Notes: generated by a model from the sequence alone, not told the origin. A stretch of DNA of 64,000 nucleotides from an uncultured Gemmatimonadales bacterium (GCA_963739455.1 CAVUAK010000001.1:2208001-2272000); one strand, 5' to 3'. Shown: positions 16,390 to 34,905, counted from the first letter of the stretch. Translations and numbers: made by a program.

Positions 16390-17405
16390 CCACCGCCGAG
16401 GCCACGGTCGTCCGCTTCACGGTGCTGGCGGACGCGACCGAGCGCCTCGATCGTTTCCTCGCCGACCAACTCAGCCTTTCACGCACGCAGGCCGCCCGCA
16501 TCGTCGCGGCCGGCAGCGTGCGTGTTGCCGGCGTGGTGGTGCGCGCCTCGCGACTGCTCAAGCATCGTGAGGAAGTGATGGTCGAGATGCCGGTGGTGGA
16601 ACCGGCCCGCCACCTCCTGCCGGCCGACATTCCCCTCACAATTGTCTTCGAGGATGAGCACCTCCTCATCATCGACAAGCCGGCCGGCCTGGTGGTACAC
16701 CCGGCGCCGGGTCACTGGAACGACACGCTGGTCAACGCCCTGATGGCGCGCGGTACCCAGCTGAGCGAGGGCAGCGCCGGCCGGCCTGGCCTGGTGCACC
16801 GGCTCGATCGCGACACCTCGGGGCTGATGGTGGTCGCGAAGAACGACCTGTCGCACCGGAAGCTGGCCCACGCGATCGCGCAGCGAAAAGTGAAGCGGAC
16901 CTACGCGGCGCTGGCGTGGGGCCACCTCGATGCCAGCCCGACGGTCATGGAGGCGCGCATCGCGAGGCATCCGCAGGACCGGAAGCGGATGTGGATCAGC
17001 GACCTGGGCCGGCCATCGCGCACTGATGGGTATGTCATTGGTCGCTTTGCCTCCTGTGAGCTGCTCCGGCTGGAGCTCCATTCCGGCCGAACCCACCAGA
17101 TCCGGGTGCACCTGGAGAGCATCGGCCACCCGGTGGTGGGGGACCCGATCTACGCCGGCGGGGGCAGCCGGCGGATCCAGGGGTCCGCCCGGGCCCTGGC
17201 GGACCGGATCGAAAGGGCGACCCCCCGTCAGGCGCTCCACGCTGCCGGTCTCGCCTTCCGCCACCCCGCGAGCGGTGAGGAGCTCCAATTCCGGGCAGAA
17301 TGGCCGGCCGATCTAATGCCTGCACTCAAGCTCGCGGCAGGCCCGGAAGTCGTTGCCCCACAAGAGGCTCTAACCTATCTTCAGTTCTACGAGCGAGATG
17401 GCTGA
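16386..17405 (+). CDS. rluD: RluA/RluD-family pseudouridine synthase
   Basis: S4 domain RLDRFL, DKPAGLVVHP, HRLDRDTSG, GRTHQIRVH, GDPIY. Confidence 0.9.
   Translation: MTTAEATVVRFTVLADATERLDRFLADQLSLSRTQAARIVAAGSVRVAGVVVRASRLLKHREEVMVEMPVVEPARHLLPADIPLTIVFEDEHLLIIDKPAGLVVHPAPGHWNDTLVNALMARGTQLSEGSAGRPGLVHRLDRDTSGLMVVAKNDLSHRKLAHAIAQRKVKRTYAALAWGHLDASPTVMEARIARHPQDRKRMWISDLGRPSRTDGYVIGRFASCELLRLELHSGRTHQIRVHLESIGHPVVGDPIYAGGGSRRIQGSARALADRIERATPRQALHAAGLAFRHPASGEELQFRAEWPADLMPALKLAAGPEVVAPQEALTYLQFYERDG
17353..17381 (+). promoter_or_regulatory. Putative sigma70 promoter for the che/mgl cluster, inside the rluD 3' end
   Basis: TTGCCC-N17-TATCTT ending 16 nt before the cheW start. Confidence 0.5.
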
Positions 17406-17835
17406 CGTCCGTCCGTTGCACGCTGTCGTGTTCCGCGTCGGTGGCGTAGTCTGTGCGCTACCAGCAGGGGTTGTACGGGAGATCCTGCCGGCGGTCCGGG
17501 CTACCCGGGTGCCGGGGGTACCCCCGGCCATCGAAGGCCTGATCAACGTGCGGGGCGGTCTGGTGACGGTGGTGGACGGGCATGTCCTGCTGGGACAGCC
17601 GCGACCCGCGGAGCTGGAAATGGCCGTCCTGCTGCTCGACCGGGGCGGGAAGGTGGCCGGCCTGACGGTGGGTGAGGTGCTCGATTTTCTCGAAGTTCCG
17701 AGCGCTGCAGTCGCATCCCGGGAGCAGTTGCCGGGGGTCGATCCCTCCGTCGTGAAGGCGGTCGGGGAGTGGGGTGGGCGACGGTTCGTATTGCTCGATC
17801 TCGATGCGCTGCTGGCGCCGCTGCTCGGCGGCTGA
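17398..17835 (+). CDS. cheW: Chemotaxis coupling protein CheW
   Basis: VREI...TRVPGVPPAIEGLINVRGGLVTVVD...GLTVGEV. Confidence 0.88.
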   Translation: MADVRPLHAVVFRVGGVVCALPAGVVREILPAVRATRVPGVPPAIEGLINVRGGLVTVVDGHVLLGQPRPAELEMAVLLLDRGGKVAGLTVGEVLDFLEVPSAAVASREQLPGVDPSVVKAVGEWGGRRFVLLDLDALLAPLLGG

Positions 17836-17880
17836 CCAGCCCAAGCGCGCAATAAATCCGGTTCCTGTCGGAGGTGGTCC

Positions 17881-18243
17881 GTGGGGCACACCGTTCTCGT
17901 CTGTGACGACGCGATCTTCATGCGCACCATGATTGCCGATATCCTCGCGGCCGCGGGCTACGAGGTGATCGGCGAGGCGGAAACCGGCGCGCAGGCAGTC
18001 CAGAAATATCGTGAACTCAAGCCCGACCTCGTCACCATGGACATCGTGATGCCCGACATGGGCGGCATCGATGCAGTGCGCGAGATCTGCAAGGATGATC
18101 CCGACGCGAAGGTGCTGATGTGCAGCGCGATGGGACAGCAGGCGCTGGTGGTCGAGGCGATCCAGGCGGGGGCGAAGGACTTCGTGGTGAAGCCGTTCCA
18201 GCCGTCACGCGTGCTCGAGGCGGTGCAGCGCGTTCTGGGCTGA
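17881..18243 (+). CDS. cheY: Response regulator CheY (Bacillus/Thermotoga-like)
   Basis: VCDDAIFMR, PDLVTMDIVMP, CSAMGQQALV, KPF. Confidence 0.93.
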   Translation: MGHTVLVCDDAIFMRTMIADILAAAGYEVIGEAETGAQAVQKYRELKPDLVTMDIVMPDMGGIDAVREICKDDPDAKVLMCSAMGQQALVVEAIQAGAKDFVVKPFQPSRVLEAVQRVLG

Positions 18244-18248
18244 GCCCC

Positions 18249-20180
18249 ATGGATCTCGCGAAGTACGCGGCGCTCTTCGTCTCGGAAAGTCGCGAGCACC
18301 TGCAGCAGTGCAACCAGTTGTTGCTGGCGTGGGAGCGTGACCCGGAAGCAACTGCGCCGGTAGACGGACTGTTCCGCGCGGTGCATTCGCTCAAGGGCAT
18401 GGCGGCCACGATGGGGTTTGCGCCGCTGGCCGAGCTGGCGCACCGGGCCGAGAACCTGCTCGATGCGGTGCGGAGCGGGCGAGTCGCGGTGAAGCCGGAG
18501 CACTTCGAGCTGCTCTTCCGCTCGGTGGACGAGCTGGAGGATGGGGTCGCAAGGGCCACGACGGGGAAGGGTCTCCGCGCGGAAGCCGCATCGCTGGTGA
18601 AGGCGCTGGATGCGGCGGTGAAGATCGGGGACAAGCCGGCGGAGCCGGCAAAGGCGGGGAGGGCGGGGAAGGCGGGAGAAACGGCGAAGGCGGGTGAGGC
18701 TGCAAAGGCGGGGAGGGCGGGGAAGGCGGGTGACGAAGCGACTGCAGGCGCGAAAGATGAGCGGCCGTCGCTGGACGTGAAGATCACCGTCCGCTCCGAC
18801 GCGCTGCTCCGCGGTGCACGAGCACTGCTCGCGCTCAGGAAGGTGGAAGCACTCGGTGTCGTGTCCCGGGTGACGCCCCAGGTGAGCGAGCTGGAGCGCG
18901 AGGACTTCGACGGCAAGCTGGCGCTCCGCATCCGCACCGGTGCCGCGCCGTCCGAAGTCGATGCGGTGATCCGCTCGGCGGGTGACATCGCCGGGGTGGC
19001 GATCGACCTCGCCTCGGACGAGGCGACGGTCGATGCGAACGCGATGCGGCAGATCCGCATCGACCTGTCTCGCCTCGATGTGCTGATGAAGCTGGCGGGT
19101 GAACTGGTGGTGGCGCGAAACCGGCTGGTGGAGCTGGCCCGCGCATCGACGGACCCCGAGCTGGGGCAGGTGGGCGAGCGGATCTCGCGGCTGGTGGGCG
19201 CAGTCCAGTCGGAAGTGCTCGAGGCTCGGCTGACACCGGTGCGAGAAGTGTTCGACCGATTCCCCCGCGTGGTGCGCGACCTGGCCCGCGACCTGGGCCG
19301 GCAGGTGCGGCTCGAGGTGGAGGGCGGCGACATCGAACTGGATCGCGCGGTGCTCGATGAAGTGGCTGATCCGCTGGTGCACCTGGTCCGGAACGCGATC
19401 GACCACGGCATCGAGCCGCCGCGGGAGCGGGTGAAGGCGGGCAAGGCGGCCGAGGGACGGCTCCGGTTGTCGGCGTCGCGGGAACGGAACAGCGTGGCGA
19501 TCCGGGTGGCCGATGACGGCCGTGGCATCGACCGCTCGAAGATCCTGGCGAAGGCGAAGGCCGATGGGCTGGTGGACGCCGCTGCCGAATCGCTGGCCGA
19601 TGACCAGTTGCTGCGGATTCTCTCGCGCTCGGGCTTCAGCACGGCGGCGGTGGTGAGTGGTGTGTCGGGCCGTGGTGTCGGCGTGGACGTGGTGATGACG
19701 CGCATCCGGCAGCTCGGCGGGGCAGTGGAGCTGGTCAGCGAGCCAGGGCAGGGCACGGCGTTCGTGCTGCGGGTGCCGCTGACGCTGGCGATCGTGCGGT
19801 CGCTGCTGGTGCAGGTGGGCGAGGAACGGTATGTCGTGCCGCTCAACTACGTGAGCGAGACGATCGAGTTCTCGGCGACACCAATCACGGCGCTGGGCGA
19901 TCGCGAGGCATTGGTCATCAGGGAACAGCCGGTGCCCACGGTGCACCTGCACCGGCTGCTCAACATTGCGGGGGCGAGCACGACAGGGCGGCGGCCGGTG
20001 CTGGTGGTGCAGGTAGGGGAACGCCGGAGCGCGCTGGTGGTGGATGCACTGATTGGGCAGCAGGAAATCGTGGTGGAGCCGTTCGATGCGCCTCGCGGGA
20101 TGCCCGGCTGGTTCAGCGGGGCAACGATCCTCGCGGATGGCGCGCCGGCGCTGATCCTGGACGCGGCGGCGCTCGTCTGA
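18249..20180 (+). CDS. cheA: Chemotaxis histidine kinase CheA
   Basis: HPt LFRAVHSLKGMA, P2-like domain, LVHLVRNAIDHGIE, DDGRG, GFSTA..VSGRGVG, C-terminal CheW domain. Confidence 0.95.
   Translation: MDLAKYAALFVSESREHLQQCNQLLLAWERDPEATAPVDGLFRAVHSLKGMAATMGFAPLAELAHRAENLLDAVRSGRVAVKPEHFELLFRSVDELEDGVARATTGKGLRAEAASLVKALDAAVKIGDKPAEPAKAGRAGKAGETAKAGEAAKAGRAGKAGDEATAGAKDERPSLDVKITVRSDALLRGARALLALRKVEALGVVSRVTPQVSELEREDFDGKLALRIRTGAAPSEVDAVIRSAGDIAGVAIDLASDEATVDANAMRQIRIDLSRLDVLMKLAGELVVARNRLVELARASTDPELGQVGERISRLVGAVQSEVLEARLTPVREVFDRFPRVVRDLARDLGRQVRLEVEGGDIELDRAVLDEVADPLVHLVRNAIDHGIEPPRERVKAGKAAEGRLRLSASRERNSVAIRVADDGRGIDRSKILAKAKADGLVDAAAESLADDQLLRILSRSGFSTAAVVSGVSGRGVGVDVVMTRIRQLGGAVELVSEPGQGTAFVLRVPLTLAIVRSLLVQVGEERYVVPLNYVSETIEFSATPITALGDREALVIREQPVPTVHLHRLLNIAGASTTGRRPVLVVQVGERRSALVVDALIGQQEIVVEPFDAPRGMPGWFSGATILADGAPALILDAAALV
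18651..18730 (+). repeat. 9-mer-derived repeat in the CheA P1-P2 linker
   Basis: AAGGCGGGGAGGGCGGGGAAGGCGGG at both 18651 and 18705; encodes KAGRAGKAG. Confidence 0.8.
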
Positions 20181-20205
20181 CTGGGTAAGGGTTCGGGAGA
20201 GCACC

Positions 20206-20826
20206 ATGGACGATGTGCGGACACTGAAGGCGCACCAGCTCGACGCGCTGCGCGAGGTCGCCAATATTGGCGCCGGCCACGCGGCGACCGCGCTTTCCCA
20301 GATGACCAACCGCACCATCATGATCGCGGTGCCCGAGGTCAACGTGCGCCCGCTCGAGGACGTGGCGGAGCTCTTCGGCTCCGCTGACGCCGTCATCTCC
20401 GCGGTGCTGATGCACATGATGGGCGACCTCACGGGCCGCACCATGATCCTCTTCCCCACCGAGTCAGCCCGGAACCTCTGCGACATCCTGATGCGGCGCG
20501 CGCCCGGCACGACGCAGGAATTCGGGCCGATGGAGCAGTCGGGGCTCAAGGAGGTCGGCAACATCCTGGTGAGTGCGTACCTCACGGCGCTCAGCGACTT
20601 CATGGGGATGATGCTCGTGCCGTCGGTGCCCAGCCTCGTGATCGACCAGGCGGGGGCGATCCTCACCACCACCTACCTCAATTTCGGCCACGACCGCGAC
20701 TACGTCTTCTGCGTCGAGACGGCATTCCAGGTCGCTGGCGCGTCCGAGCAGCTTCACGGGCATTTCCTGCTGCTGCCCGACCTGCCCTCGCTGCGCGCCA
20801 TCTTCGACGCCATCCGCATCTCCTGA
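20206..20826 (+). CDS. cheC: CheY-P phosphatase CheC
   Basis: Two ExxN sites: DALREVANIGAGHAATALSQM and SGLKEVGNILVSAYLTALS. Confidence 0.92.
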   Translation: MDDVRTLKAHQLDALREVANIGAGHAATALSQMTNRTIMIAVPEVNVRPLEDVAELFGSADAVISAVLMHMMGDLTGRTMILFPTESARNLCDILMRRAPGTTQEFGPMEQSGLKEVGNILVSAYLTALSDFMGMMLVPSVPSLVIDQAGAILTTTYLNFGHDRDYVFCVETAFQVAGASEQLHGHFLLLPDLPSLRAIFDAIRIS

Positions 20827-20830
20827 CCCG

Positions 20831-23542
20831 ATGCCGGGTCCTGCGCCTTCCGATCGCGACCTAGCCATCCTCCGGTCGTTCGCCAGTCGCATCGACCCGT
20901 CCGACGCCGGCGCGCACAACAACCTGGGTGTCCTGTATTACCAGAAGGGGATGATCGGCGAGGCCGTCGCCGCGTTTTCGCGCGCGCTCGAGATCGACTC
21001 GCGCATGCAGGTGGCGCAGGACAACCTCGAACTGGCGTATCGAGAGAGCGGTTTCTACGATGGCCGCGTCGCCGAACTGCAGGAACGCCTGCGGCGCACT
21101 CCCGATGATCGCGAGGCGCGCTGGGAACTGGGTCGTGCATACGCCAGCCTGAGCCGGCACGACCTCGCGGCCCAGGCCTTCGAGGAACTGCTTGCCCGGG
21201 CTCCAGCCGATGTGCCCGCCCTCATTCACCTGGGACTGGCCGAGAAGGCACGCGGCCGCATCGAGGCTGCCGGCGGGTGCTTCGCCCTCGCCGCCGAGCT
21301 CGATCCAGGCAGCGCCGTCGCGCGATTCTACCAGGGCGAGACGCTGTACAATCGCGGGCTCAACGATGCGGCACTCGAGGCGCTCGAGGCCGCCATCGCG
21401 CACAATCCCGACTACGCTGAAGCGCACTACCTGCTGGCCTTTGTCTACGGCGACATGGGGCTGCACGAGCGCGCGCTCGCGGCCACGAAGCGGGCGATCG
21501 CGCTGAACCCGATGCTCTCGCGGGCGCAGGCGAATCTTTCGCTCGAGCGGCTGGTGCCCAAGGGAGAAGAGGGCGCGAAGGCGGGGAAGGCGGGGAGGGC
21601 GGGGGGTGCTGGCGTGGGGTCCGACGGCGTGCCGCTGGAGCGGGATCCGCTGGCGCACTACCAGCTCGGGCTCGCCTTCCGGCAGAAGCGCTACTTCGCC
21701 GAAGCGTTGCGCGAGTACCGGATGGCACTCGATGCAGGCGAGGATCGCTCGCTGGTACTGCAGGCAATGGCGGAAGTGCACCTGCTGCGGCGCGATCACT
21801 CGACGGCGCTGGAGCTGTACGACGAGCTGCTGCGGCAGAACCCGAAGGTGCCGAAGCTCTGGAACGAGCGCGGCGTTTGCCTGCACCAGGCGGGGCGCCG
21901 CGACGAGGCGGCGACGGCCTACGAGCACGCGATTGCCGCCGACCGTACCTACGCGCTGGCGTGGAACAATCTCGGCGTGCTGCGGGCCAGTGCCGCCGGG
22001 TCCGATACGGCAATGGCGGCCTTCCGTTCGGCGCTGGAACGGCAGCCCGGCCTGCATGCGGCGCGACTCAACCTGGCCCTGCTGCTCATGCAGAAGCGCC
22101 AGCCGCAGGCGGCACTCGAGGCCTACCGCGAGGTGCTGTCGCGCGACCACGTGAATGCGGTGGCGTGGAACGGGGTCGGCCTGGTGCTGATGGAACTCAA
22201 GCGCTACACCGATGCCCGCAACGCCTTCGGCCGCGCGGTGGAGCATGACCCCGCCCTCGCTGCAGCGCACTACAACCTGAGCTTCACGCTGGGACAGCTC
22301 GGCGACTTCGAGGGCGCGTTGCGCGAAACCAAGCGCGCGCTGGAGCTCGAGTCGTACTACGTGCCGCAGAAGTTCGCGCTGACGATCGACCTGCAGTACG
22401 AGGATCCCACGATCGCAATCGCGCCCGACGTTGCGACTGAGGTGGGACTCGAGTCGCTGGGTGGCGAGTTCGCCTTCGATCCGGGCACCCTCGACGACCT
22501 CTTCGCCGAACTGGCGCCGCCCGAGGCTCCGGTGGTGGCCGCCCGGGTCGAGGATCCCCTCACGCTGGCGCGCGATTACCTGAGCAAGGGGCTGCTCGAG
22601 CTGGCGACGGCCGAGGTGACGCGGGCGCAGGGGCGTGGCGCGGGCCGCGCCGAGGCGCAGACGCTGCTGGGCGAGATCTACGCGCGGCGAGGGCTGCACG
22701 GCGAGGCACTGGAGCGCTTCCGCACGGCGCGCGAATCGAATCCGGGCGACCGGCTCGCGGCACTGGGTGAGCTGCGCGGCCTCGTGGCGCTGGAGCGTGC
22801 CGCCGAGGGTGGCACCCTGGCCGAGCAGCTGCTGGAAGCATTCCCCCGGGATGTTGAGGTGCTGAGCGCCGTCGCGCGCGTGCGCCTGGCCATGGGTGAC
22901 GCAACGCGCGCGCTGAGTGCGGTACAGCTGGCGCAGACTCTCGCGCCCGGCCGCTCCGACCTCCTGCACCTGCAGGCGCGAGTCGCAGTGCGACTGGATG
23001 ACCGTGCCGCAGCGATCGAGGCGTGCCGTCGCGCGCTCGAACTCGACGACTCGCTGGTGCAGGTGTGGTACGAGCTCGGGCGTCTGGAGGAAGGACGCGA
23101 GGGATGGACGGCAGCGCAGGATGCCTATGCGCGCGCACTCGACATCCTTCCCACATATCTCGAGGCAGGGCTGGCGCTGGCGGACCTGCTGCGGCGCCGG
23201 ATGCAGCATCGTCCCGCGCTCGAGGTGCTGGTGGAACTGCTGACCACCGACCCGTACGCGGTGGAAGCGCTGGTGCTGCTGGGCAAGGTGCTGTTCGAGC
23301 AGGGGCGCATCGACGAGGCGCTGGAGGGCTTCGGGCGCGCGCTCCGGTTCAACCCTGAGCATCCGGCGGCACTCTTCCATTCCGGGGACGTGCTGGCGCG
23401 CAAGCGCCGCTTCGAGGATGCGGTTGATGCGTGGGACCGGGTCTCACAGATCGATCCCTCGGGGCCCTTCGCCGCGCCGGCCCGGAGCCGGGCGCGCTCG
23501 GCGCGGGATCTCCGGCACATCTTCGCCGCGCAGCCGGGCTGA
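20831..23542 (+). CDS. Large cytoplasmic TPR protein
   Basis: Many TPR repeats (AHNNLGVLYY, AWNNLGVL, AHYNLSF) in several blocks; no signal peptide apparent. Confidence 0.85.
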   Translation: MPGPAPSDRDLAILRSFASRIDPSDAGAHNNLGVLYYQKGMIGEAVAAFSRALEIDSRMQVAQDNLELAYRESGFYDGRVAELQERLRRTPDDREARWELGRAYASLSRHDLAAQAFEELLARAPADVPALIHLGLAEKARGRIEAAGGCFALAAELDPGSAVARFYQGETLYNRGLNDAALEALEAAIAHNPDYAEAHYLLAFVYGDMGLHERALAATKRAIALNPMLSRAQANLSLERLVPKGEEGAKAGKAGRAGGAGVGSDGVPLERDPLAHYQLGLAFRQKRYFAEALREYRMALDAGEDRSLVLQAMAEVHLLRRDHSTALELYDELLRQNPKVPKLWNERGVCLHQAGRRDEAATAYEHAIAADRTYALAWNNLGVLRASAAGSDTAMAAFRSALERQPGLHAARLNLALLLMQKRQPQAALEAYREVLSRDHVNAVAWNGVGLVLMELKRYTDARNAFGRAVEHDPALAAAHYNLSFTLGQLGDFEGALRETKRALELESYYVPQKFALTIDLQYEDPTIAIAPDVATEVGLESLGGEFAFDPGTLDDLFAELAPPEAPVVAARVEDPLTLARDYLSKGLLELATAEVTRAQGRGAGRAEAQTLLGEIYARRGLHGEALERFRTARESNPGDRLAALGELRGLVALERAAEGGTLAEQLLEAFPRDVEVLSAVARVRLAMGDATRALSAVQLAQTLAPGRSDLLHLQARVAVRLDDRAAAIEACRRALELDDSLVQVWYELGRLEEGREGWTAAQDAYARALDILPTYLEAGLALADLLRRRMQHRPALEVLVELLTTDPYAVEALVLLGKVLFEQGRIDEALEGFGRALRFNPEHPAALFHSGDVLARKRRFEDAVDAWDRVSQIDPSGPFAAPARSRARSARDLRHIFAAQPG

Positions 23543-23544: not shown

Positions 23545-24690
23545 ATGGCTATCGAGGGACCGCTCAAGGAACTGCACATCCATGATGTGTTCCAGCTGCT
23601 GGACCTGGGCCGGAAGACGGGCGTGCTGTGCGTGACCTCTGAGCTGCGGCAGAACTCGGGGATGGTCTACTTCGAGAAGGGGGCAGTGGTCGCTGCGGAG
23701 ATCCGGAGTAATCCGCATCCACTGGGCACGCTCCTGCTGCGCGCCGGCAAGATCGCCGAGGCCGACCTGGCGCGGGCGCGGGCACTGCAGGGCGCGGGTG
23801 ACGGGCGACGGCTGGGCGACATCCTGGTGGACCTCGGCGCGATGAACCGGCGCGACCTCGAGCGGCTGGTGCGCCAGCAGGTGCAGGAAGTCATCTTCGA
23901 GCTGATGAACTGGTCGGAGGGATACTTCTCCTTCGAGGAAACCACCGGGCCGCGGACGAATGCCGAGGCCAGTGTGCGGATCCCGACGGAATCGCTGCTC
24001 ATGGAAGCGGCGCGCCGGATCGACGAATGGTCACGCATCGAGGCCAAGGTGCCGCACCTGGGCGTGGTGCCGCGCTTCGCCGATGCCGACAGCCAGCACG
24101 GGATGCTCGACCTCACGCCCTTCGAGTGGGAAGTGATCGCGACGGTGGACGGAGCACGCGACCTGCGGGCCATCGCCGACAAGCTGGGGCGGGCGGAGTT
24201 CGAGATCGCCCGCACCATCTTCGGCCTCACGAGCACCGGCGTCGTCGTGCTGGATGATCCGACACTGGTTGCCACCGGACCGGAAACCCCGGACGTGACG
24301 CAACTGGTGGTACGAGCAGAGGAGCAGCTGGCTTCGGGTGATGTCGACTCGGCGCGGCTCATCGCTACTGAAGCGACGGCGCGCTTCCCCGATCAGGCCG
24401 GCGCGCATGCGGTGCTCGGGCGCGTGCTGCTGGCGGGCGAGCACTACGCCGAGGCGGAGGAGGCATTTTTCGAGGCGCTGCGGCTCGAACCCTCGTTCGC
24501 ATCGGCGCGGCGGCTTCTCGGGACGGCGCAGGCTGCAAGCGGAAGGTTCGACGAGGCAATCGCCTCGTGGCAGCGCTGGCGGCAGCTGCCGGAGCGTTCG
24601 CCCGAGGAAGTGCAGCTGCAGGACGGGGTCGATCGCCTGCAGGCCGCGGCGCGACTGCTGAGTGACGCGATCAAGGGGTGGTATGACTGA
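23545..24690 (+). CDS. DUF4388/PATAN + MshEN-like + TPR protein
   Basis: MAIEGPLKELHIHDVFQLLDLGRKTGVL...GMVYFEKG, RLGDILV motif, WSEGYFSF, SLLMEAARRIDEW, C-terminal TPRs. Confidence 0.82.
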   Translation: MAIEGPLKELHIHDVFQLLDLGRKTGVLCVTSELRQNSGMVYFEKGAVVAAEIRSNPHPLGTLLLRAGKIAEADLARARALQGAGDGRRLGDILVDLGAMNRRDLERLVRQQVQEVIFELMNWSEGYFSFEETTGPRTNAEASVRIPTESLLMEAARRIDEWSRIEAKVPHLGVVPRFADADSQHGMLDLTPFEWEVIATVDGARDLRAIADKLGRAEFEIARTIFGLTSTGVVVLDDPTLVATGPETPDVTQLVVRAEEQLASGDVDSARLIATEATARFPDQAGAHAVLGRVLLAGEHYAEAEEAFFEALRLEPSFASARRLLGTAQAASGRFDEAIASWQRWRQLPERSPEEVQLQDGVDRLQAAARLLSDAIKGWYD

Positions 24691-25498: not shown

Positions 25499-25845
25499 AG
25501 AACCTGGGTGAGACGCTCGAGCGGGTGACCCGCGTGGCGGGCATCCGGGGCGCGATGCTGGTGGCGGAGGCGGACGGTCTCGTGGTGGCCGAAGCATTGG
25601 CCGAGGGCCTCGACGGCGGGGCGGTCGCGGCGCTCGCGGCGAGCCTGACGCTCCGGCTCCGCCGCACGGCGATCAGTGCCGGGCTTGCGGTGCCGCAGGT
25701 GGTTCAGCTGCGGGCGGAGCGGGGAACGGTCCTCAGCGTGCCGGTGGGCGACGACCTGCTGCTCGTGGCAGTGGCGGAGCGCGATGCGAACCTGGGGCTC
25801 GCGCGGCTCGAGCTCCGGCAGGCGGCGGCGCAGCTCGGATCATGA
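25495..25845 (+). CDS. Roadblock/LC7 domain protein
   Basis: GIRGAMLVAEADGLVVA...ANLGLARLEL; GTG start overlaps the upstream stop. Confidence 0.82.
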   Translation: MKNLGETLERVTRVAGIRGAMLVAEADGLVVAEALAEGLDGGAVAALAASLTLRLRRTAISAGLAVPQVVQLRAERGTVLSVPVGDDLLLVAVAERDANLGLARLELRQAAAQLGS

Positions 25846-26306: not shown

Positions 26307-26909
26307 ATGTCGCTGGTCAACTTCACTGCGCGCGAGATCACCTGCAAGATCGTCTACTATGGACCGGGCCGGTCCGGGAAGACGACCAACTTGCAGTACA
26401 TCTTCGGCCGGGTGCCGGACACGCGGCGCGGGCGGATGGTGTCGCTGGCCACGCAGGGTGACCGGACGCTGTTCTTCGACTTCCTTCCCATCGACCTGGG
26501 GAGCATCTCGGGGTTCCAGACCAAGTTCCAGCTGTACACCGTGCCGGGGCAGAGCTACTACAACGCGACGCGGAAGCTGGTGCTGCAGGGGGCCGACGGC
26601 ATCGTCTTCGTGGCCGACAGCCAGGCGCGGCGCTTCGACGACAACCTGGAGAGCCTGCAGAACCTGCAGGAAAACCTGCTGAGCCAGGGCGTGGATGTGC
26701 GGACGATGCCGATCGCGTTCCAGTACAACAAGCAGGACCTGCCGGGCGAGCTGGTGCTGCAGCCGTCGGAGCTGGATGACTCGCTCAATTTCCGCGGGGT
26801 GCCGAGCTTCGGTGCCGACGCGCTGCATGGCAGCGGCGTGTTCGAGACGCTGAAGGGGATCTCCGAGCTCGTGCTGCGCAAGCTGGCTGCGGGAGGGATT
26901 GCCGAATGA
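26307..26909 (+). CDS. mglA: Small Ras-like GTPase MglA
   Basis: KIVYYGPGRSGKTTNL, DRTLFFDF, QLYTVPGQ, NKQD. Confidence 0.95.
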   Translation: MSLVNFTAREITCKIVYYGPGRSGKTTNLQYIFGRVPDTRRGRMVSLATQGDRTLFFDFLPIDLGSISGFQTKFQLYTVPGQSYYNATRKLVLQGADGIVFVADSQARRFDDNLESLQNLQENLLSQGVDVRTMPIAFQYNKQDLPGELVLQPSELDDSLNFRGVPSFGADALHGSGVFETLKGISELVLRKLAAGGIAE

Positions 26910-29147
26910 GCATGCTGCAGGGCGCGCACCGATTCGATGCACTGGTGGTGGGCACGGCCAACCGCACCGCGGTGACGGCCGGCCGCGCCGTGGCGAGTGC
27001 GCCGGGGTCGGCCTACAACCCGTTGCTCATCTACGCGCGGCCCGGCATGGGCAAGACGCACCTGCTCGGCGCCATCGCGCATGAAGTGTTCGCGGTGAAC
27101 CCGGCGGCGCGCATCGAGTTCCTGACACTGGATGAGTTCGTCGAAGGCTTCCATGTCGCCCTGTCCACCGGCCAGAGTGACCGAGTTCCGCGCGCGGTTC
27201 GGCGATGCGGACCTGCTGCTGGTGGACGACATCCAGTTCCTGAGCCGGCAACGGGAAATGCAGTCGGAACTGCTGCGGGTGCTCGACGTGATGCTGGCGG
27301 GGCAGAAGCAGGTGGTGCTCACCAGCGACCGGGCGCCCTCCGAAATCGAGTCGCTCGACGACCGGCTGCTCACGCGGTTTGCCGGGGGCCTGGTGCTCGA
27401 CATCGCCCGACCGGACTACGAGACCCGGGTCGCGATCCTGCACCGCAAGGCGGAGGAGCGCGGCGCGAGCTTCCCCGACGAGGTGCTCGAGGCGGTTGCG
27501 TCGCTCGACATCGAGAGCGTGCGTGAGCTGGTGGGCGCCGTGAACCGGCTGGTGGCATTCCAGGCGGTCAGCGAGGTGCCGATCGATGCCGCACAGGCGC
27601 GGCTGCTCATCGGCGGCCTGCAGTCGGCGGTAGCGGACGACCTGGTGGTGGAACAGGCGGAGACGCTGGAGTTCGCCGGTGTCGGCCATGGCGAGATGGC
27701 GCATGCGGGTGGCGATTCGCGCCGCCTCGTGGCCGACGCGCTTCCCGGGGTGATGCTCGGCCAGTCGGACATGCTGGGCGGCGGTCCCCTGGATGAGCTG
27801 CCCTCGCACGACGAGCCCGACGACGCGCCGCACGATTTCGGGCTGGCGGGCGAGCCGCACGAGTATGCCGACGCGCACGAGTTCTCGGAACCGGGCCCGG
27901 CGAAGCAGCAGCCGGACGAGCTGGGTGAGGGACTGGCCGAGAAGCAGGCCCTGCAGGCCGACCGCGACGAGTTCGGTGATTTCCTGTCCGACCTCGCGGC
28001 CACGCTGGCGCGGCAGGTTGATCCGTGGCGCGCGCGCGTGGGCGAGGCGATCCTGCGCTGGGAGGGCGAGGGCTTCCGCACCTACCGGCTGGAGCGGCTG
28101 CTGGAAGATCCAGAGCCACCCGATCCCGAGTCGGTGATGATCCAGTACGAAGCCGACGCGGAGCAGCTGCTCGAGCTGCGCGCCGAGGCGGAGTCGCTGG
28201 CGCCTGGCATGGCCGGCGCAGCGCAGCTCACCGATCCCGGCAACATGGCGGCGGCCGATGCCTACATGCAGCGGGTGCGCGAGGGCGCGGTGCCGCCGGC
28301 GGGGCCGGTGGAGCACTGGCTGCTCGACGACCTGATCGAGGGCCCGGGGAACCGCATGGCGGTGCGCGCGGCGCTCGCGGCGATTGCCGAGCCGGGGCAG
28401 AAGTACAACCCGATCGTGGTGGTGGGCGGTTCGGGCGTGGGCAAGACACACCTGCTGCACGGCATCGGGAACGCACTGGCGCTGGCGAGCGACGGACACG
28501 TGGCCTGCCTTGGCGCGCACGACTTCACGCAGGAGCTGATCGAGGCGATCGAGCGCGATGCCGTGGCGGCGTGGCGAAATCGCTACCGTCGCTGCTCGGC
28601 GCTGCTGCTCGACGATGTGCACCTCATCGCAGGCAAGGAGCGGACGCAGGAAGAACTGTTCCTGCTGTTCAACCTCTTCCTCGAGTCGAACCGGCAGCTC
28701 GGGTTCACCTCGGCGGTGCCGCTGGCGGAGCTGTCGGGCGTGGAGCCGCGACTGCTGACGCGCCTCGAGGGCGGGCTGGTGGTCGAGTTGCCGCCGCCCG
28801 ACCGCGAGCTCCGCCAGGAACTGGTGGAGCGGACGCTCACGAGCCGCGGCCAGGATGCGGATGCCGAGCTGGTGACGTACATCGCGTCGCGTCCCGCCGA
28901 GTCGGCGCGCGCCGTCCAGGGCTACGTGCAGCGCGTGCTGCACTCGGCCGACTCGCAGCAGGCGAAGCCGAGCGCGGCGCTGGCGCGGGAGGTGCTCGAG
29001 GGCGGCGCGCGCGTGGTGCGGAAGGGCAGCACGCCGGGCCGGTCGATCAGCGTGTCGCCCGCCTCGTCGGGTGGGGTCAAGAGCCACGAGAAGACCGTCT
29101 GGACCTGGCCCACCCTCGCCGATCGCGTGATCGAGGAGTGGAAGTAG
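26906..29147 (+). CDS. Protein with two tandem DnaA/Hda-type AAA+ domains (frameshift near 27175)
   Basis: Domain 1: YNPLLIYARPGMGKTHLL, LLVDDIQFL, TSDRAP, TRFAGGL, VREL. Domain 2: YNPIVVVGGSGVGKTHLLHGIGN, LLLDDVH, TQEELF, TRLEGGL. No DnaA domain I or IV. Confidence 0.85.
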
Positions 29148-29148: not shown

Positions 29149-30769
29149 ATGGCGATCAAGGGGTCCCTCAAGGAAGCGAGCCTTCCCGACGTCATCCAGC
29201 TGCTCTACCTGGGGCGGCGCACCGGGTGCCTGGCGATCACCGACCGCCAGAACCTGGGCTACATCTACTTCGATGACGGGAAGATCGCGTACGCGTCGAT
29301 CGTGAACCGCCGCGACCGGCTGGGCGACATGCTGGTGCGCAGCAACCGCATCAACGCGGAGCAGCTGCGCCAGGCGATCGACCAGCAGGCGAACGACCGC
29401 GAGGTGCGCCTGGGCGAGATCCTGCTGGGGCAGGGCGCGCTCACGCGGCAGGAACTGGACGACTACATGCGCCTCCAGATCGAGGAGGCGGTCTACTACC
29501 TGTTCACGTGGACCACGGGCGCCTTCAACTTCGAGGCGGGCGTCCGTCCCGATCCGCGCGACTTCCAGGTGCAGATCAACCCCGACTGGCTCCTGCTCGA
29601 GGGCGCGCGACGGGTGGACGAGTGGAGCCTGATCGAGAAGAAGATCCCGAGCTTCGACCTGATCTTCACTGCCGACCAGGCGCGGGTCGAGGCGGCGGGC
29701 GCCCCGCTGTCGGAGCAGGAGCAACTGGTCCTCCCGCTGCTCGATGGCCGGCGCGACGTGCAGCAGGTGGTGGACGAGTCGGGCCTGGTGGAGTTCGTGG
29801 TGGGCCAGGCGCTCTACAGCCTGATCACGGCGGGTTACGCGCATCGCACCGGGTCATCGGCGACCACCATCTCGCCCCGGGTCAACGATTCGCGGGTGGA
29901 GGAGCACCGGAACCTCGGCGTCGCGTTCTACCGCACGGGCATGCTGGACGAGGCGCTGCGCGAGTTCCGGCGGGTCGCGGAACTGCGGCCGACCGAGGGC
30001 AGCGCGCCGTTCTACCTCGGGCTCATCGCGCTGCGGCAGGCCAAGTGGGAAGAGGGCGTCGAGGCGTTCAAGCTGGCGGTGGAGAAGGGCGGCCCGCGCC
30101 CGGCGGCACTGCACAACCTCGGATTCGCACTGGAGCAGCTGGGGCGGCTCGAGGAAGCAGAGGCGGCGTATGGCGACGCCACCAGCCGCGCGCGCGATGA
30201 CCACCGGATCATGCTCGGCTGGGCCATCGCGGCGCTGCAGCGGGGCGAGCACCAGGTGGCGGTGAGCCGACTGGAACGCACGCGCGAGCTGCTGGGCGAG
30301 AAGACGCCGCCGGCGGCGTGGCACTGGGCGATGGCACTGGCCCAGGCGGCGAGCGACGGCCTCGACGCGGCGCTGGAGACGGCGCGCGCGGGCGTCACGG
30401 CATACCCGGAGCAGGCGGTGCTGCGGAACAACCTGGCCGTCCTGCTGGAGCTGCGGGGCGACACCGCCGGCGCGGAGCAGATGCTGAAGCTGGCGTTCTC
30501 GTCCGACCCGGCGCTGCCGCAGGTGTCGAAGAACACCGGCGACCTGCTGTATCGAGCCGGGCGTTATGACGAGGCCTACGAGGCGTACGAACGCGCGTCG
30601 CGCGTCGCGCCCGGAGCTGGGCGACGACCTCTACTTCAAGCTGGGCAACATCGCGTACAAGCGGCGGGACACGGCGCGGGCACGCGCGAGCTGGGAGCAT
30701 GCGACGGAACTGAACCCGGGCCACCAGCTGGCCCGGGCCAACCTCGACATGCTCGCGGCGGAGGCATGA
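29149..30769 (+). CDS. DUF4388/PATAN + MshEN-like + TPR protein (frameshift near 30610)
   Basis: MAIKGSLKEASLPDVIQLLYLGRRTGCL, two RLG motifs, LLLEGARRVDEW, TPRs; the last TPR continues in ORF 30566..30769. Confidence 0.82.
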
Positions 30770-31584
30770 CGGTGCACGAGGATGCGGAGTTCGATGCCCT
30801 GGCCAAGGACCTCACGGTGCGCACGGGAGTGTCGCTGGCGGCGTACAAGCCGAAGTGCCTCCGGCGCCGGATCGCCGTGCGCATGCGGGCCTGCGGCGTG
30901 CACACGTACGACGAGTACCGCGGCGTGCTCGCGAGTACGCCGGGCGAGGTCGATCGCCTGCACGACGCCCTCACGATCAACGTCACCCGCTTCTTCCGGA
31001 ACCCGGAAACCTGGGAGGCCGTAAAGGCGAACGTGCTGCCGGGGCTGATGGCGAAAGCGGCGCCGGTGCGGGTCTGGAGTGCCGGCTGCTCGTCGGGTGA
31101 GGAGGCGCATACGCTGGCGATGCTGTGGGCCGACGGCGCCGAGCGCGCGGGCCATCCCGAGTGGCTCGACCGGCTCAGCGTCGAGGCCACGGACATCGAC
31201 CGCGAGTGCATGCTGCGGGCGCGGGCGGGGCAGTATCGCACCGACGCCTTCGTGGAGACGCCGCCCCGGCTGGTGGAGCGATGGACCCGGCCGGAGGGAG
31301 AAGGGCGCATCGTCGACGCGCGGCTCCGCGCGCGGATCCAGGTGTCCACGCTCGACCTGACCCGCGATGCGATGCCGGTGCGCCGCTTCGACCTGGTCGT
31401 CTGTCGCAATGTCGTGATCTACTTCGACCGGATTACGCAGGAACGACTGTTCGTCGCCTTCCATGATGCGCTCGTGCCGGGCGGCACCCTGATCCTCGGC
31501 AAGGTGGAAACCCTGGTCGGCCCGGCGCGCGACCTGCTCGAGCTCGTGGATGTGCGCGAGCGCATTTACCGGAGGCCGGCGTGA
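30766..31584 (+). CDS. cheR: Chemotaxis methyltransferase CheR
   Basis: TINVTRFFRN, VWSAGCSSGEE, ATDID, FDLVVCRNVVIYF; ATG overlaps the upstream TGA. Confidence 0.93.
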   Translation: MTVHEDAEFDALAKDLTVRTGVSLAAYKPKCLRRRIAVRMRACGVHTYDEYRGVLASTPGEVDRLHDALTINVTRFFRNPETWEAVKANVLPGLMAKAAPVRVWSAGCSSGEEAHTLAMLWADGAERAGHPEWLDRLSVEATDIDRECMLRARAGQYRTDAFVETPPRLVERWTRPEGEGRIVDARLRARIQVSTLDLTRDAMPVRRFDLVVCRNVVIYFDRITQERLFVAFHDALVPGGTLILGKVETLVGPARDLLELVDVRERIYRRPA

Positions 31585-32069
31585 GCGCACGGGAGATCGT
31601 CGTGCGGGTATCGGACATGGCCGTGGCCTCGGCGGACGAGGTCCTCGTCACCGTGGGCCTGGGCAGCTGCGTGGCGATCATGCTCTACGATCCGGAGACG
31701 CGGATCGGCGGGCTCGCGCACATCCTGCTGCCGTCGAAGGCGCTGACCCGGCAGTCGGACAACCCGGCCAAGTTCCCGCAGTCGGCGGTGCCGGTGCTGC
31801 TGGAGCGGATGGTGGCGGCTGGGGCGAACCCGCGGCGCATCACGGCGCGCCTGGCGGGCGGGGCGAGCATGTTCTCGCAGCTGGCACCGCCGGGCACGAT
31901 CCAGATGGGCGAGCGGAACCTCGTGTCCACGCGGCAGGCGCTGAGTGCGCACAACGTGCCGCTCACGGGTGAGGCGGTGGGGGGCGACTTCGGCCGCACG
32001 GTGCGGCTGCACTGCAAGGACGGCCGGATCGACGTGTCATCGGTCGCGCACGGTGTCCAGCACCTCTGA
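31581..32069 (+). CDS. cheD: Chemoreceptor glutamine deamidase CheD
   Basis: [37 protein letters not shown]. Confidence 0.93.
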
Positions 32070-33126
32070 GCGACGGTCGGTCCTCATCGCCGACGACAGC
32101 CCATTCTTCCGCCGCCTGCTCTCCGACATCCTGGAGCGCAGCGGGGAATTCACCGTGGTGGGCACGGCGCGGAACGGCATGGACGCGCTGCAGAAGGTGC
32201 ACCGGCTGCAGCCGGACCTGGTGCTGATGGACCTGGAGATGCCGGAGCTCGACGGGCTGGGCGCCATCGGGTACATCATGTCGGAAGCGCCGCGGCCGAT
32301 CGTGGTGGTGTCGAGCTACGCGGGCCCGGGCACCTCGGCGGCGATCCGGTCGCTGGAGCTGGGCGCGGTGGAAATCGTGGCGAAGGAGTCGGGCCGCGAT
32401 GCCGCCGACCTGGAGCGGTTCGGCGAGCGCCTGCTGGAAACACTGCGGCTCTCGGCGGGGGCCGAACTGTTCCGCCTGCCGATCCTGGCACGGCCGGCAC
32501 AGGGCGTTCCGCCAGCGGCGCTCTTCTCGCTGCCGGGCCGGGCGCGCGGCTGCGTCGCCATTGCGGCATCGACCGGCGGTCCGCGCGCGCTCGCCGAGGT
32601 GGTACCGAAGCTCTCGCCGGGACTCGGCGCCGGAGTGGTGATCGTGCAGCACATGCCACCGGGCTTCACGCGGAGCCTGGCTGAGCGACTGTCGGGGCAG
32701 AGCCAGCTCCGCGTGGTGGAGGCGGAGCACGGCACGCCATTGCTCGAGGACACCGCGTACGTCGCACCGGGAGACTGGCACATGCGCGTGGCGGCGGGGC
32801 CCGACGGCGTGCACCTGCTGCTCGATCGCGAACCGACGATGCATGGTGTCCGGCCCGCCGCCGATCCGCTCTTCCGCTCGGTGGCCGAGGTGTTCGGCGC
32901 GCGCGCGGTGGGCGTGGTGCTGACGGGACTGGGCCGCGACGGCGCGGATGGGCTCAGGCGCATCCATGAGGCGGGTGGCATCGGGATCGCGCAGGATCGC
33001 GCGAGCGCCACCATCGACGGGATGCCGGCGGCGGCGCGAGCGTCGGGCGGCGCCGATCATGTGCTCTCGGTGACGCAGGTGGCGGGACAGGTGGACGCGG
33101 AGATCCGCCGCATGCGACTCCTGTGA
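32053..33126 (+). CDS. cheB: Chemotaxis methylesterase CheB
   Basis: REC domain plus [19 protein letters not shown] catalytic triad. Confidence 0.94.
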
Positions 33127-33545
33127 GTGCCCCGGCCGGGGCGTTCCTGCTGGTGCGCGCCGGTGGTCGCAAGGTGGGGCTCGCAGTCGAGGCGGTCATC
33201 GAAGTGCGCGAGCCGGATGAGCTCGGTGCCATCCCGTCGCTCGAACCGGCACTGCGCGGGGTGACCTCGCTGCGGGGCCAGCTGATGCCGGTGCTCAACC
33301 TGGGGGCGTTGCTGGGGGGTGAACCGGGGCCGGGCCTGGTGGTGGTCGTCACGAGCCTTGGAGGGCGCCGGGTGGGGCTCGAAGTCGATGACGCGGATGT
33401 GGTGGTGAGCGCTGGCGTCGCACTGCTGAGTGCCGATGAGACGCTCCCCTGGGCCCGCGCCATCGCGGTGCTCCCGGACCAGGTGTACGTGCCGCTCCTC
33501 GACCTGGGCGCGCTGGCGGCACGACTTACGGAGGTCAGCACATGA
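33123..33545 (+). CDS. cheW: CheW-like protein
   Basis: VIEV...[24 protein letters not shown]...VGLEVD. Confidence 0.8.
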
Positions 33546-34015
33546 CGCTGCCACATGGCGATGACATCCAGCTGGTCACCTTCCGGTGCGGCGGGCATGA
33601 CTTCGCATTCGATATCCTGCAGCTGCAGCGGATCCTTCGGTACGAGGTGCCGTCACCGCTGCCGGACGCGCCCGATTTTCTCGAGGGTGTGCTGTCATAC
33701 GAGGGCGCTGCGGTGCCGGTGGTGGACCTGCGGAAGCGCCTGGGGCTGCCGGCCACTGTCACCGAAGAGACGCGGGTCATGCTGCTGGTGCTCGACGGGC
33801 ATCGCGTCGGGGTGGTGGTCGATGCCGCCCGCGAGCTGGTCCGGGTGGACAGCACCACGATCAGCGCGCCGCCGCCGATGGTCCGGGGCCTCGCCGCGCG
33901 GTACATCGCGGGCATCCTGGCGCGCCCCGAGCGCACCATCGTCATCCTGAACGCGCAGCGCCTGCTGGCCGACGACGAACGGAACGTCCTGCACCACCTG
34001 GAGATCACGACGTGA
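33542..34015 (+). CDS. cheW: CheW protein
   Basis: QLVTF..FAFDI..LPDAPDFLEGV..VPVVDLRKRLG..VGVVVD. Confidence 0.88.
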   Translation: MTLPHGDDIQLVTFRCGGHDFAFDILQLQRILRYEVPSPLPDAPDFLEGVLSYEGAAVPVVDLRKRLGLPATVTEETRVMLLVLDGHRVGVVVDAARELVRVDSTTISAPPPMVRGLAARYIAGILARPERTIVILNAQRLLADDERNVLHHLEITT

Positions 34016-34905
34016 GTGAACCGACCGGCTCCGGCCCCGATCCCTGGGTGACCGGCCTGCGCGCCACGCATGCCGACATCGCGCGACGCCTGGACGCGGC
34101 CACGACCGCCATCGACCGCGACATCCTGAAGCGCGAGATCATCTCGTTCTTCAAGCGTGTGGACGGGGCGCTCACCGACCTGACGAAGCTCAAGGAGGAG
34201 ATCCGCCTGCTCGTCAACCAGTACAAGCAGGTGGCGTCCACGGCCGACTCGGCGCAGGCGCCGCAGTTCACCGGTGCGTTCCCGGTGGTGCAGGCGGACC
34301 ACCTCGGCGCGTCGACGTACATCGAGAAGGGGTGGAGCCTCATCTCGCTGGGCGATCATGCGGGGGCGATCCAGGCGCTGCAGCGCGCGCTCCAGCTGGC
34401 GCCGGGCGATACGCAGGCGCAGTCGCTGCTGGGCTGGGCGCAAATGCTCCACGAGGATTATGACGATGCCTTGGGCACCTTCTCGCGGGTACTGATGAAG
34501 GAGCCGGCCAACTCGCTCGCCCGGATCAACGTCGGCTACATTTGCCTGAAGAAGGGGATCTTCGGCGAGGCGATCGAGCACCTGTCCAAGGCCATCCGGC
34601 TGGACAACGATCGCAAGGCCACGCTGTACGCGCACTTCTACCTGGGCCTGGTGTACCTCGAGCGGGAAATGTTCGAGGATGCGCAGTCCTTCTTCCGGAA
34701 GACGCTGCAGCTCGGGCCCAACCTCATTGAGGCCTACTTCGAACTGGGACGCGCGCAGTGGTTCGCGGGGGAACGGGACCACGCGGTGGGAACCTGGACG
34801 GAGGGGCAGAAGGCCAACCGGTTCAACCCGTGGTCAAAGCGGTGCGCGGAAATGCTGGAGCGGGCGGCGGCGGGGGAAGACATTCCGCGGGCGCTGGTTT
34901 CATAG
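34012..34905 (+). CDS. Coiled-coil + TPR protein
   Basis: N-terminal helical segment, then TPRs (ARINVGYI, AHFYLGLVY, AYFELGRA). Confidence 0.8.
   Translation: MSEPTGSGPDPWVTGLRATHADIARRLDAATTAIDRDILKREIISFFKRVDGALTDLTKLKEEIRLLVNQYKQVASTADSAQAPQFTGAFPVVQADHLGASTYIEKGWSLISLGDHAGAIQALQRALQLAPGDTQAQSLLGWAQMLHEDYDDALGTFSRVLMKEPANSLARINVGYICLKKGIFGEAIEHLSKAIRLDNDRKATLYAHFYLGLVYLEREMFEDAQSFFRKTLQLGPNLIEAYFELGRAQWFAGERDHAVGTWTEGQKANRFNPWSKRCAEMLERAAAGEDIPRALVS

Follow-up and report, generated by a model that had tools for sequence, protein, structure and literature searches.

A conserved Gemmatimonadales gene cluster combines F1-like chemosensory genes, a second MglA/MglB pair and a DnaA-type ATPase in a candidate cell-pole module

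Analysis of a 64,000-nucleotide stretch of the genome of an uncultured Gemmatimonadales bacterium (GCA_963739455.1, CAVUAK010000001.1:2208001-2272000; hereafter the window) revealed a block of 18 genes, all located on the + strand at positions 17398..34905, in which two arms of chemosensory (che) genes enclose a core of tetratricopeptide repeat (TPR), PATAN and roadblock proteins, an MglA/MglB pair and a tandem DnaA-type ATPase. The composition of this block, the linkage of its genes and the conservation of their catalytic motifs were directly observed. We propose, with about an even chance of being right, that the block encodes a module controlling which state a single cell pole adopts, with type IVa pilus assembly at that pole as the most likely output. 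All of the genes named in an earlier, sequence-only reading of this region (the original prediction) were present in the order and common orientation given there; their number had been put at 17, although that reading's own list sums to 18. The tight packing it described was also confirmed, since ten of the 17 junctions overlap by 4-17 bp and the remaining seven are gaps of 1-45 bp, with none above 45 bp. The upstream rluD gene overlaps the first cheW gene by 8 bp, and a scan of positions 16500-36400 returned no terminator-like sites (5.1 expected from shuffles) and no sigma-70-like sites (1.0 expected). The genes, in order, and the predicted binding tail of the ATPase were as follows.

17398..17835, + strand: cheW, the first of three (PF01584, E-value 2.8e-24).
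17881..18243, + strand: cheY, a single receiver of the Thermotoga/Bacillus type (closest solved structure Thermotoga maritima CheY, 177.9 bits).
18249..20180, + strand: cheA, Hpt-P2-dimerisation-HATPase-CheW without a receiver domain (Pfam; phospho-His motif in 29/30 orthologues).
20206..20826, + strand: cheC phosphatase gene (PF04509 twice; best NCBIfam match CheC_Thtogales, 171.9 bits, below the cut-off of 250).
20831..23542, + strand: all-TPR protein of 903 amino acids (aa), a candidate MglA effector or scaffold (TPR families only; 36-76% identity, 24 orthologues).
23545..24690, + strand: PATAN (DUF4388) protein 1 with an MshEN-type insert and a TPR end (PF14332 113 bits; NF053729 37.9 bits, cut-off 38).
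24683..25498, + strand: TPR-roadblock protein (TPR; PF03259 29.5 bits).
25495..25845, + strand: stand-alone roadblock protein, 116 aa (PF03259 29.7 bits).
25842..26303, + strand: diverged MglB paralogue with a conserved C-terminal helix (NF052242 31.8 bits, cut-off 200; alignment).
26307..26909, + strand: MglA paralogue, a Group 1 small GTPase (240.9 bits to the solved MglA 5ymx; G1, Arg finger, TVPGQ, NKxD).
26906..29147, + strand: tandem DnaA-domain-III AAA+ protein (intact AAA, helical domain of ~110 aa, degenerate AAA, conserved tail).
29073..29144, + strand: the ATPase's conserved C-terminal tail, for which binding in the TPR groove of PATAN protein 2 is predicted (E730, W736 and E745 invariant, 84/84; complex model).
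29149..30769, + strand: PATAN protein 2, with a split PATAN domain, tandem MshEN motif, small helical/strand domain and TPR superhelix (PF14332 125 bits; NF053729 42.2 bits).
30766..31584, + strand: cheR (PF01739, PF03705; a separate open reading frame in congeners).
31581..32069, + strand: cheD (PF03975; catalytic Cys motif in 24/25).
32053..33126, + strand: cheB, receiver and methylesterase, start codon approximate (NF001965 335 bits, above the cut-off).
33123..33545, + strand: cheW, the second (PF01584).
33542..34015, + strand: cheW, the third (PF01584).
34012..34905, + strand: protein of 297 aa with an N-terminal helical region and TPRs (TPR families; kept in the che-less loci L026 and L043-L045).

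Two of these genes are interrupted in this assembly. The tandem DnaA-type gene contains one extra base near 27182, and the gene for PATAN protein 2 (PATAN-2) contains one near 30613, which leads to an apparent fusion to cheR. Because both extra bases were missing from all four aligned congeners, and because ftsH (window 4788-6730) and aroC (L064:4924-6158) are likewise read in two pieces, the two frame breaks are most likely assembly errors; a PATAN-TPR-CheR fusion and a split ATPase were rejected as real features on these grounds. One congener (L018) has a break of its own in the ATPase gene, further on. Protein-level work was carried out with intact congener genes (L037); PATAN-2 is 539 aa long in the congeners.

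Conservation of the block was assessed in named relatives, which are Gemmatimonadales metagenome-assembled genomes. MglA matches were obtained in 41 of 41 relatives, and 20 of the 41 relative loci were taken, with long contigs preferred. Gene order was collinear in all 20, and all 18 genes were matched in 11 of them. A further 80 loci, the best-scoring 80 of 570, in which close relatives are over-represented, showed no deviation in 78 cases within the DNA stretch available. Since order is collinear across the relative loci, the arrangement, as judged from these comparisons, is not due to chance. In a phylum sample of 121 genomes, among them the source genome and, for tallies only, the unpublished G082 and G120, there were 77 cluster-type mglA genes and 80 cheC orthologues. 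Both were present in 72 genomes; they lay no more than 7 kb apart in 66 of these, and on separate contigs in the other six. The cluster extends to families f4, f5 and f8 of the class (L050-L052), and no orthologue of this cheC turned up in families f6, f7 and f9-f12 of the sample. The original prediction had made its claim depend on the che and mgl genes staying neighbours in related genomes; their linkage was kept across Gemmatimonadales and three further families. Among the best 80 of 570 PATAN-2 loci, from a scan that favours close relatives, 79 were labelled Gemmatimonadota and one, a 6.3-kb contig, Limnocylindria.

The layers of the cluster can be separated. All che genes are gone and the core is kept in L026, L044 and L045, and in the covered part of L043; the che genes are decaying in L056 and L057. 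Conversely, the Mgl genes and the ATPase are missing from L042, where the che genes, PATAN-2 and the final TPR gene remain. No roadblock match and no cheR were found in L047-L049, and in L040 and L041 the MglA protein lacks the arginine finger and the G3 motif, and cheR, cheB and cheD are gone. In genome G138 only the ATPase and PATAN-2 genes are present, at the same site, between rluD and a peptidase gene. The core clearly works without chemosensory input. Because the Che arms, the Mgl shell and the ATPase are lost separately, the link from the che genes to MglA can only be inferred. These losses weigh against a single wired system. The genomes are also related to one another, and the counts overstate independence. 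Of the original statement that the pathway is wired to the polarity switch, the interleaving and conservation of the genes held; the wiring itself was not borne out, the core surviving the loss of all che genes and receptors and the che genes surviving the loss of Mgl in L042.

One explanation for this pattern is that the che genes and the MglA core are functionally independent and share an ancient transcription unit behind ileS-lspA-rluD. The loss of each layer without the other and the translational coupling of the block to housekeeping genes agree with this explanation. We nevertheless consider it unlikely, since the two che arms have stayed on either side of the core in several families, and since PATAN-2 occurs in every locus with remaining che genes; it is the sole gene present in every cluster locus that was examined. 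CheY, furthermore, is strongly conserved in genomes without a flagellar target and so needs some target. The constant hub and the split che arms suggest wiring.

The presence of CheC and CheD and a CheY of the Thermotoga/Bacillus type are features of the F1 class of chemosensory systems. The che set was found to have these features, together with a CheA of the Hpt-P2-dimerisation-kinase-CheW type without a receiver, and its proposed identity as an F1-type pathway is supported to the extent that it appears F1-like. The receptors of that class are of the 44H type, with which three of the four methyl-accepting chemotaxis proteins (MCPs) of the genome agree in length. These three are orphans with 154-155 residues past the hairpin tip, a span of 22 heptads as in 44H receptors. 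A separate che cluster contains the fourth, longer MCP, and no MCP gene is located inside the cluster described here. CheY showed 88% mean column identity among 26 orthologues and is conserved over its whole surface. The catalytic motifs of CheA, CheB and CheD were kept in nearly all orthologues, and the CheR pattern and the first CheC pattern were matched in 18/24 and 24/30 orthologues, respectively. An MCP was present in 78/78 genomes with a non-decayed cheC and in only two of the seven genomes that keep mglA with the che arms lost or decayed, the other five having none. The receptors are therefore lost together with the che arms.

The separate che cluster (G000:C1:612500-620900; L060:6536-14841) consists of cheY, cheY, cheA, cheW, the gene for the longer MCP, a HEAT-repeat gene, cheR and cheB, and resembles Myxococcus Che7. 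One orphan MCP (L063:5912-7993) has several membrane segments and a cytoplasmic GAF domain, and its gene overlaps folK-panB-panC-panD genes. The linker of the 903-aa TPR protein was also considered as the site of a CheY-binding helix resembling that of FliM; this motif gives no support because it is kept in the che-less L026 and L044 as well.

Judged by which genes are present, the cluster is independent of flagella. This genome, which is 83.7% complete, yielded no FliG, and by this measure it does not have the motor switch with a CheY-binding FliM that a flagellar chemotaxis system requires. Among the 80 cheC carriers FliG was present in 20 and not found in 60, and in family f10 it was present in 9/9 genomes, none of which has this cheC. 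In 22 flagellated genomes the N-terminal CheY-binding peptide of FliM was kept in 14/14 when another full-length CheA was present and in 3/8 when it was not; where the cluster CheA is the sole CheA, the peptide was missing from four of five flagellated genomes. These results agree with the predicted non-flagellar output. Several points count against it: the peptide pattern was relaxed after the sequences had been viewed, the genomes are related to one another, the peptide is kept in G130 although no CheA besides that of the cluster was found there, and G037 and G117 keep it with other CheA matches that are only partial.

The most familiar alternative, an ordinary flagellar chemotaxis system that has become vestigial in non-flagellated descendants, is in our judgement highly improbable. 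It would account for the Thermotoga-type CheY, CheC and CheD, for the 20 flagellated carriers and for G130. However, the catalytic motifs are intact in the carriers in which FliG was not found, and flagellated carriers mostly have another CheA, with the FliM peptide missing in four of the five that do not. A FliM without the N-terminal CheY-binding peptide was observed in five of the 22 flagellated genomes (L066, L069, L163, L165 and L166), and the flagella of these bacteria apparently operate without classical chemotactic control.

A canonical dnaX-ybaB-recR-mglB-mglA pair is located elsewhere in the genome (C1:2010580), and the window MglA/MglB is for this reason, as judged by gene order, a second paralogue outside the canonical synteny, which has been reported in deltaproteobacteria (PMC3983030). 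The mglB and mglA genes named in the original prediction are thus present, as a paralogous pair and not as the recR-linked copy. The window MglA is 48-58% identical to the recR-linked type. The window MglB, a roadblock protein adjoining mglA that scores below the Pfam and NCBIfam cut-offs, is 34% identical to the recR-linked MglB over 101 aa with the C-terminal helix kept; it may act as a GTPase-activating protein. The motifs by which PMC4316618 defines Group 1 were present in most of 38 MglA sequences, three of which are recR-type copies (G1 in 38, Arg by G2 in 35, TVPGQ in 36 and NKxD in 36); the exceptions were L040, L041 and, for one motif, L057. The L040 and L041 proteins (L040:9376-9981, L041:9861-10466; genus g31) represent a natural pseudo-GTPase MglA with truncated TPR and PATAN-1 neighbours. 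The recR-linked MglA of this genome (G000:C1:2010000-2011300; L059:9076-10255) has an insertion of ~30 residues after position 156.

Both PATAN-TPR proteins were present as originally noted; the cyclic di-GMP (c-di-GMP) motifs of the MshEN type that they carry had been overlooked. In each, the DUF4388 domain (PF14332, 113 and 125 bits, cut-off 25) is split by an inserted motif of this type (NF053729, 42.2 bits in PATAN-2 and 37.9 bits in PATAN protein 1 (PATAN-1), cut-off 38). The two half-motifs of PATAN-2 are near-invariant among 84 sequences, R57 being found in 84/84 and G59 and Q80 in at least 98%. The PATAN-1 motif is borderline at 37.9 bits and has its first Arg replaced. On this sequence evidence, both proteins are probable c-di-GMP sensors. 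There are 12 GGDEF matches in the genome, and its PilB has an MshEN domain in which the first motif has no arginine. L031, L042 and L058, a single clade that is also without the ATPase, show a clean deletion of the insert in PATAN-2. A fold search with PATAN-2 returned only TPR proteins and barely covered the N-terminal part; the atlas gave PATAN clusters at 0.92. A preprint (10.1101/2021.06.11.447907) treats PATAN as equivalent to DUF4388 and describes pilus-motor binding by PATAN-receiver proteins and PATAN genes near mglA.

The ATPase was shown to have an intact first AAA domain, with the Walker A, Walker B, sensor and arginine-finger positions kept in 80-84 of 84 sequences, and a second in which, in the 84 sequences, Walker A, Walker B and the arginines are kept and the sensor-1 aspartate is lost. 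The structure model had a mean predicted local distance difference test score (pLDDT) of 77.5 and a predicted template modelling score (pTM) of 0.45. Its first AAA matched DnaA domain III with 41% identity and a root-mean-square deviation of 1.6 (8bv3; also 2z4r). DnaA domains I and IV (PF11638, PF08299) are absent from the intact congener ATPase and present in true DnaA, and a true dnaA-dnaN locus lies elsewhere in the genome. Against the Hda model TIGR03420 the protein scored 162.1 bits (cut-off 194.8), it has two AAA domains, and a clamp-binding N-terminus was not seen in the ATPase alignment. The protein does pass the TIGR00362 cut-off and has stayed hidden because public databases label it DnaA or DnaA/Hda. 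A single-AAA form occurs in L051 and L052, and the helical middle domain was present in 79/121 genomes. When homologues of short length were sought, most results were fragments named Gemmatimonadales DnaA/Hda; one was labelled Methylomirabilota, and pieces of true DnaA came next.

These features bear on a cell-cycle role, in which the ATPase would co-oligomerise with, or inactivate in an Hda-like manner, the true DnaA, and MglA and the PATAN proteins would couple pole identity and c-di-GMP to replication or to asymmetric division. Such a role is improbable in our estimation. The kept motif positions of the first AAA and its match to DnaA domain III fit it, as do the position of the cluster between divIVA-ileS-lspA-rluD and the dcw genes and the persistence of the inner pair and core without any chemoreceptor. 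However, the protein has neither DnaA domain I nor IV, falls below the Hda cut-off and shows no clamp-binding N-terminus. It is also not essential, since it was not found in 9/28 genomes of family f2 nor in most of the remaining phylum, and the flanking genes are ordinary housekeeping neighbours.

A partner for the ATPase was suggested by its losses. In all four ATPase-less loci PATAN-2 is C-terminally shortened (430-477 aa), at the TPR end, as a result of about two events on the tree, and a complex of PATAN-2 with the ATPase tail was modelled for this reason. The tail is of low confidence when modelled alone, yet contains three invariant residues. PATAN-2 and the last 49 ATPase residues (L037 proteins) gave a complex score of 0.83, compared to 0.23 for the best of three controls, and passed a mark that is reached by 116/157 solved complexes and 2/215 mismatched pairs. 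The runs agreed in at least 69% of contacts, with a partner pLDDT of at least 58, and the modelled tail runs along asparagines of the PATAN-2 TPR groove. The tail is predicted to bind this groove. Four considerations temper the prediction. Conservation at the predicted interface exceeds that of the remaining TPR region by a small margin (0.78 versus 0.71); the interface is eroded in one of the four ATPase-less loci; PATAN-2 was the only one of the four TPR partners in the cluster to be tried; and the pass may reflect likeness, because TPR-peptide complexes are common among solved structures.

The helical domain of the ATPase (~110 aa) matches a repeat that occurs in up to 25 copies in long proteins (P0124, P0141, P0153, P0163, P0230, P0127, P0130, P0134 and P0204). 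Five long proteins combine the repeats with a DnaA-type AAA without domain IV, four of them also with zinc ribbons; other long repeat proteins carry DUF835 or KaiC-like domains. The named members derive from Thermoplasmata, other archaea and one Wallbacteria, and none of the five DnaA-fused proteins is among them. The N-terminal domain of the long proteins was considered as PATAN-like and rejected (profile comparison probability 0.2, E-value 0.36). A context scan for these proteins gave one locus, with the match limited to the AAA region. A second, stand-alone copy of the helical domain was found in a 264-aa protein without a Pfam match (L177:9569-10363; G037:C50).

In the proposed pole module, these components would form three layers. 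The inner layer would pair the DnaA-derived ATPase with a PATAN-MshEN-TPR adaptor, a probable c-di-GMP binder to which the C-terminal tail tethers the ATPase. The middle layer would comprise the second MglA, the MglB paralogue, two further roadblock proteins, the second PATAN-MshEN protein and the large TPR scaffold. The outer layer would be the F1-like pathway, with input from the orphan 44H-length receptors, and phosphorylated CheY (CheY-P) would have the module, and not a flagellar motor, as its target. Receptors, CheW and CheA would lead to CheY phosphorylation, with CheC, CheD, CheR and CheB providing reset and adaptation. CheY-P would then act on the core, the plausible target being a PATAN domain, by analogy with cyanobacterial regulators in which receiver and PATAN are fused, and c-di-GMP would gate the PATAN adaptors. 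MglA would cycle under its roadblock partners and act through the TPR scaffold, as the M. xanthus protein acts through SgmX in the results given in PMC7519303; the tethered ATPase would contribute an ATP-dependent step; and the output would be pilus assembly at one pole.

The genome encodes a full type IVa pilus set (pilB-pilT-pilC, pilMNOPQ and pilins). The proposal is weakened by several points. There are no pilus genes inside the cluster; PilM, found in 115/121 genomes including lineages without the cluster, does not discriminate because it is near-universal in the phylum; and every step from CheY onward is inferred. It is a supposition that CheY acts on a PATAN protein, that c-di-GMP is bound, that the MglB paralogue has GTPase-activating activity, that MglA works via the TPR scaffold and that the output consists of pili. 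Gliding, which had also been proposed as an output, was set aside as the least supported, because GltE, a Myxococcus gliding marker and the only one used, was not above the cut-off in any of five genomes. A wider form of the proposal, which we advance tentatively as a doubtful possibility, is that a DnaA AAA+ core has been reused as a signalling ATPase, with a hub on a c-di-GMP-binding PATAN-TPR adaptor that would integrate CheY-P, c-di-GMP, GTP and ATP states in one polar complex where the GTPase switch and the F1 pathway converge, and with its helical domain being a repeat that also lies beside DnaA-type domains in long proteins, some of these proteins labelled Thermoplasmata. If this is true, the occurrence of the repeat beside DnaA-type domains would point to a cross-domain class of non-replicative DnaA ATPases.

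The original prediction held that F1 systems with CheC and CheD normally drive flagella or archaella. In contrast, the CheC-bearing Dif system of Myxococcus is non-flagellar: as described in PMC4671073 and PMC3945109, it has a CheC homologue (DifG), a CheY (DifD) that serves as a phosphate sink, a P2-bearing CheA and 44H receptors, and it controls exopolysaccharide. By analogy, the cluster CheA could signal to an orphan response regulator with exopolysaccharide, adhesion or biofilm under its control. The cluster CheY and CheC would then form a phosphate sink, and the MglA/PATAN/c-di-GMP core, placed before the kinase or alongside it, would report the state of the pili or of the surface. Consistent with this, the five primary kinase-specificity residues of DifD (F13, M14, M17, D20 and I21) are identical in the cluster CheY, and MshEN-type motifs fit a sessility output. 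However, these residues are largely shared with Thermotoga CheY and so mark the F1 type and not Dif; there is no MCP gene and no polysaccharide gene in the cluster; and the conservation of CheY over its whole surface would exceed the apparent need of a sink. We regard a Dif-like pathway as rather unlikely.

The cluster was compared with other known systems. Like Frz and MglA/MglB/RomR(-RomX, MglC) of M. xanthus, it has a chemosensory pathway, a Group 1 MglA, MglB and extra roadblock proteins, in a genome that also encodes type IVa pili. The Frz CheA carries a receiver, according to a table in PMC3945109, and mglA is encoded away from its partners, according to PMC4316618. Here, by contrast, the F1-like CheA is without a receiver and therefore not a Frz-type hybrid, CheC and CheD are present, the genes are interleaved, and there are a second MglA paralogue, PATAN-MshEN proteins and a DnaA-type ATPase. 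With the Bdellovibrio hub MglA-Bd2492(TPR)-RomR-CdgA and M. xanthus MglA-SgmX it shares MglA and would share a TPR partner, a c-di-GMP receptor, the location at one pole and an action on pili; these have no chemosensory arm and no ATPase, and their receptor for c-di-GMP belongs to the degenerate GGDEF proteins and not to the MshEN type. The cluster would work like Frz-MglA or the Bdellovibrio hub and is a member of neither. Dif (DifA/C/D/E/G) is likewise non-flagellar and has a CheC homologue, a P2-bearing CheA, a single-domain CheY whose specificity residues are identical to those of the cluster protein and 44H receptors, which most MCPs of this genome resemble in length, but acts on exopolysaccharide via EpsW, has its receptor in the operon and is not described with mglA, PATAN proteins or the ATPase; unlike Dif, the cluster also has CheR, CheB, CheD and three CheW proteins. 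In PatA-type (PATAN-receiver) cyanobacterial regulators such as PixE, a chemosensory kinase acts upstream of the PATAN domain, which makes contact with the pilus motor; in the cluster, by contrast, the receiver forms a protein of its own, and the PATAN proteins additionally carry MshEN and TPR domains. The ATPase shares the AAA+ fold and the initiator-clade active-site motifs with DnaA domain III and Hda; unlike these, it is without domains I and IV and has two AAA copies (one in L051 and L052), the helical domain and the peptide tail. The ATPase-adaptor pair is the part without a known counterpart.

To our knowledge, Myxococcus is almost the only source of information on how a chemosensory pathway flips a small-GTPase polarity switch, and its genes for this are dispersed in the chromosome. 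The cluster brings the candidate parts together in a single string, in another phylum and another chemosensory class, and its natural deletion variants keep the layers apart. In addition, it suggests a target other than the flagellum for a CheY of the Thermotoga type, contains a DnaA-type ATPase whose predicted partner is not DNA, and points to an unstudied link between sensing and the cell pole in Gemmatimonadota soil bacteria. In agreement with the suggestion that no system of this composition has been characterised, a search of the open-access literature found no functional description. The cluster is thus a functionally undescribed candidate, with a PATAN-mglA neighbourhood that had already been tabulated: the supplement of PMC4316618 contains, for Gemmatimonas aurantiaca T-27, a GAU_1115 row (MglB, MglA) and a GAU_1409 row (PATAN, MglA, an unnamed gene, PATAN), the latter row naming no che genes and no ATPase. 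Because this bacterium is cultured, genetics may be possible.

The cluster is flanked upstream by yggS-divIVA-pnp-ileS-dksA-like-lspA-rluD (window 10323-17405) and downstream by the dcw genes mraW to ftsZ (38235-53524). The presence of divIVA upstream is noteworthy in a diderm. A gene for an MA-family peptidase and a gene for a 605-aa TPR protein (window 34944-38004) lie 3' of the cluster in most relatives.

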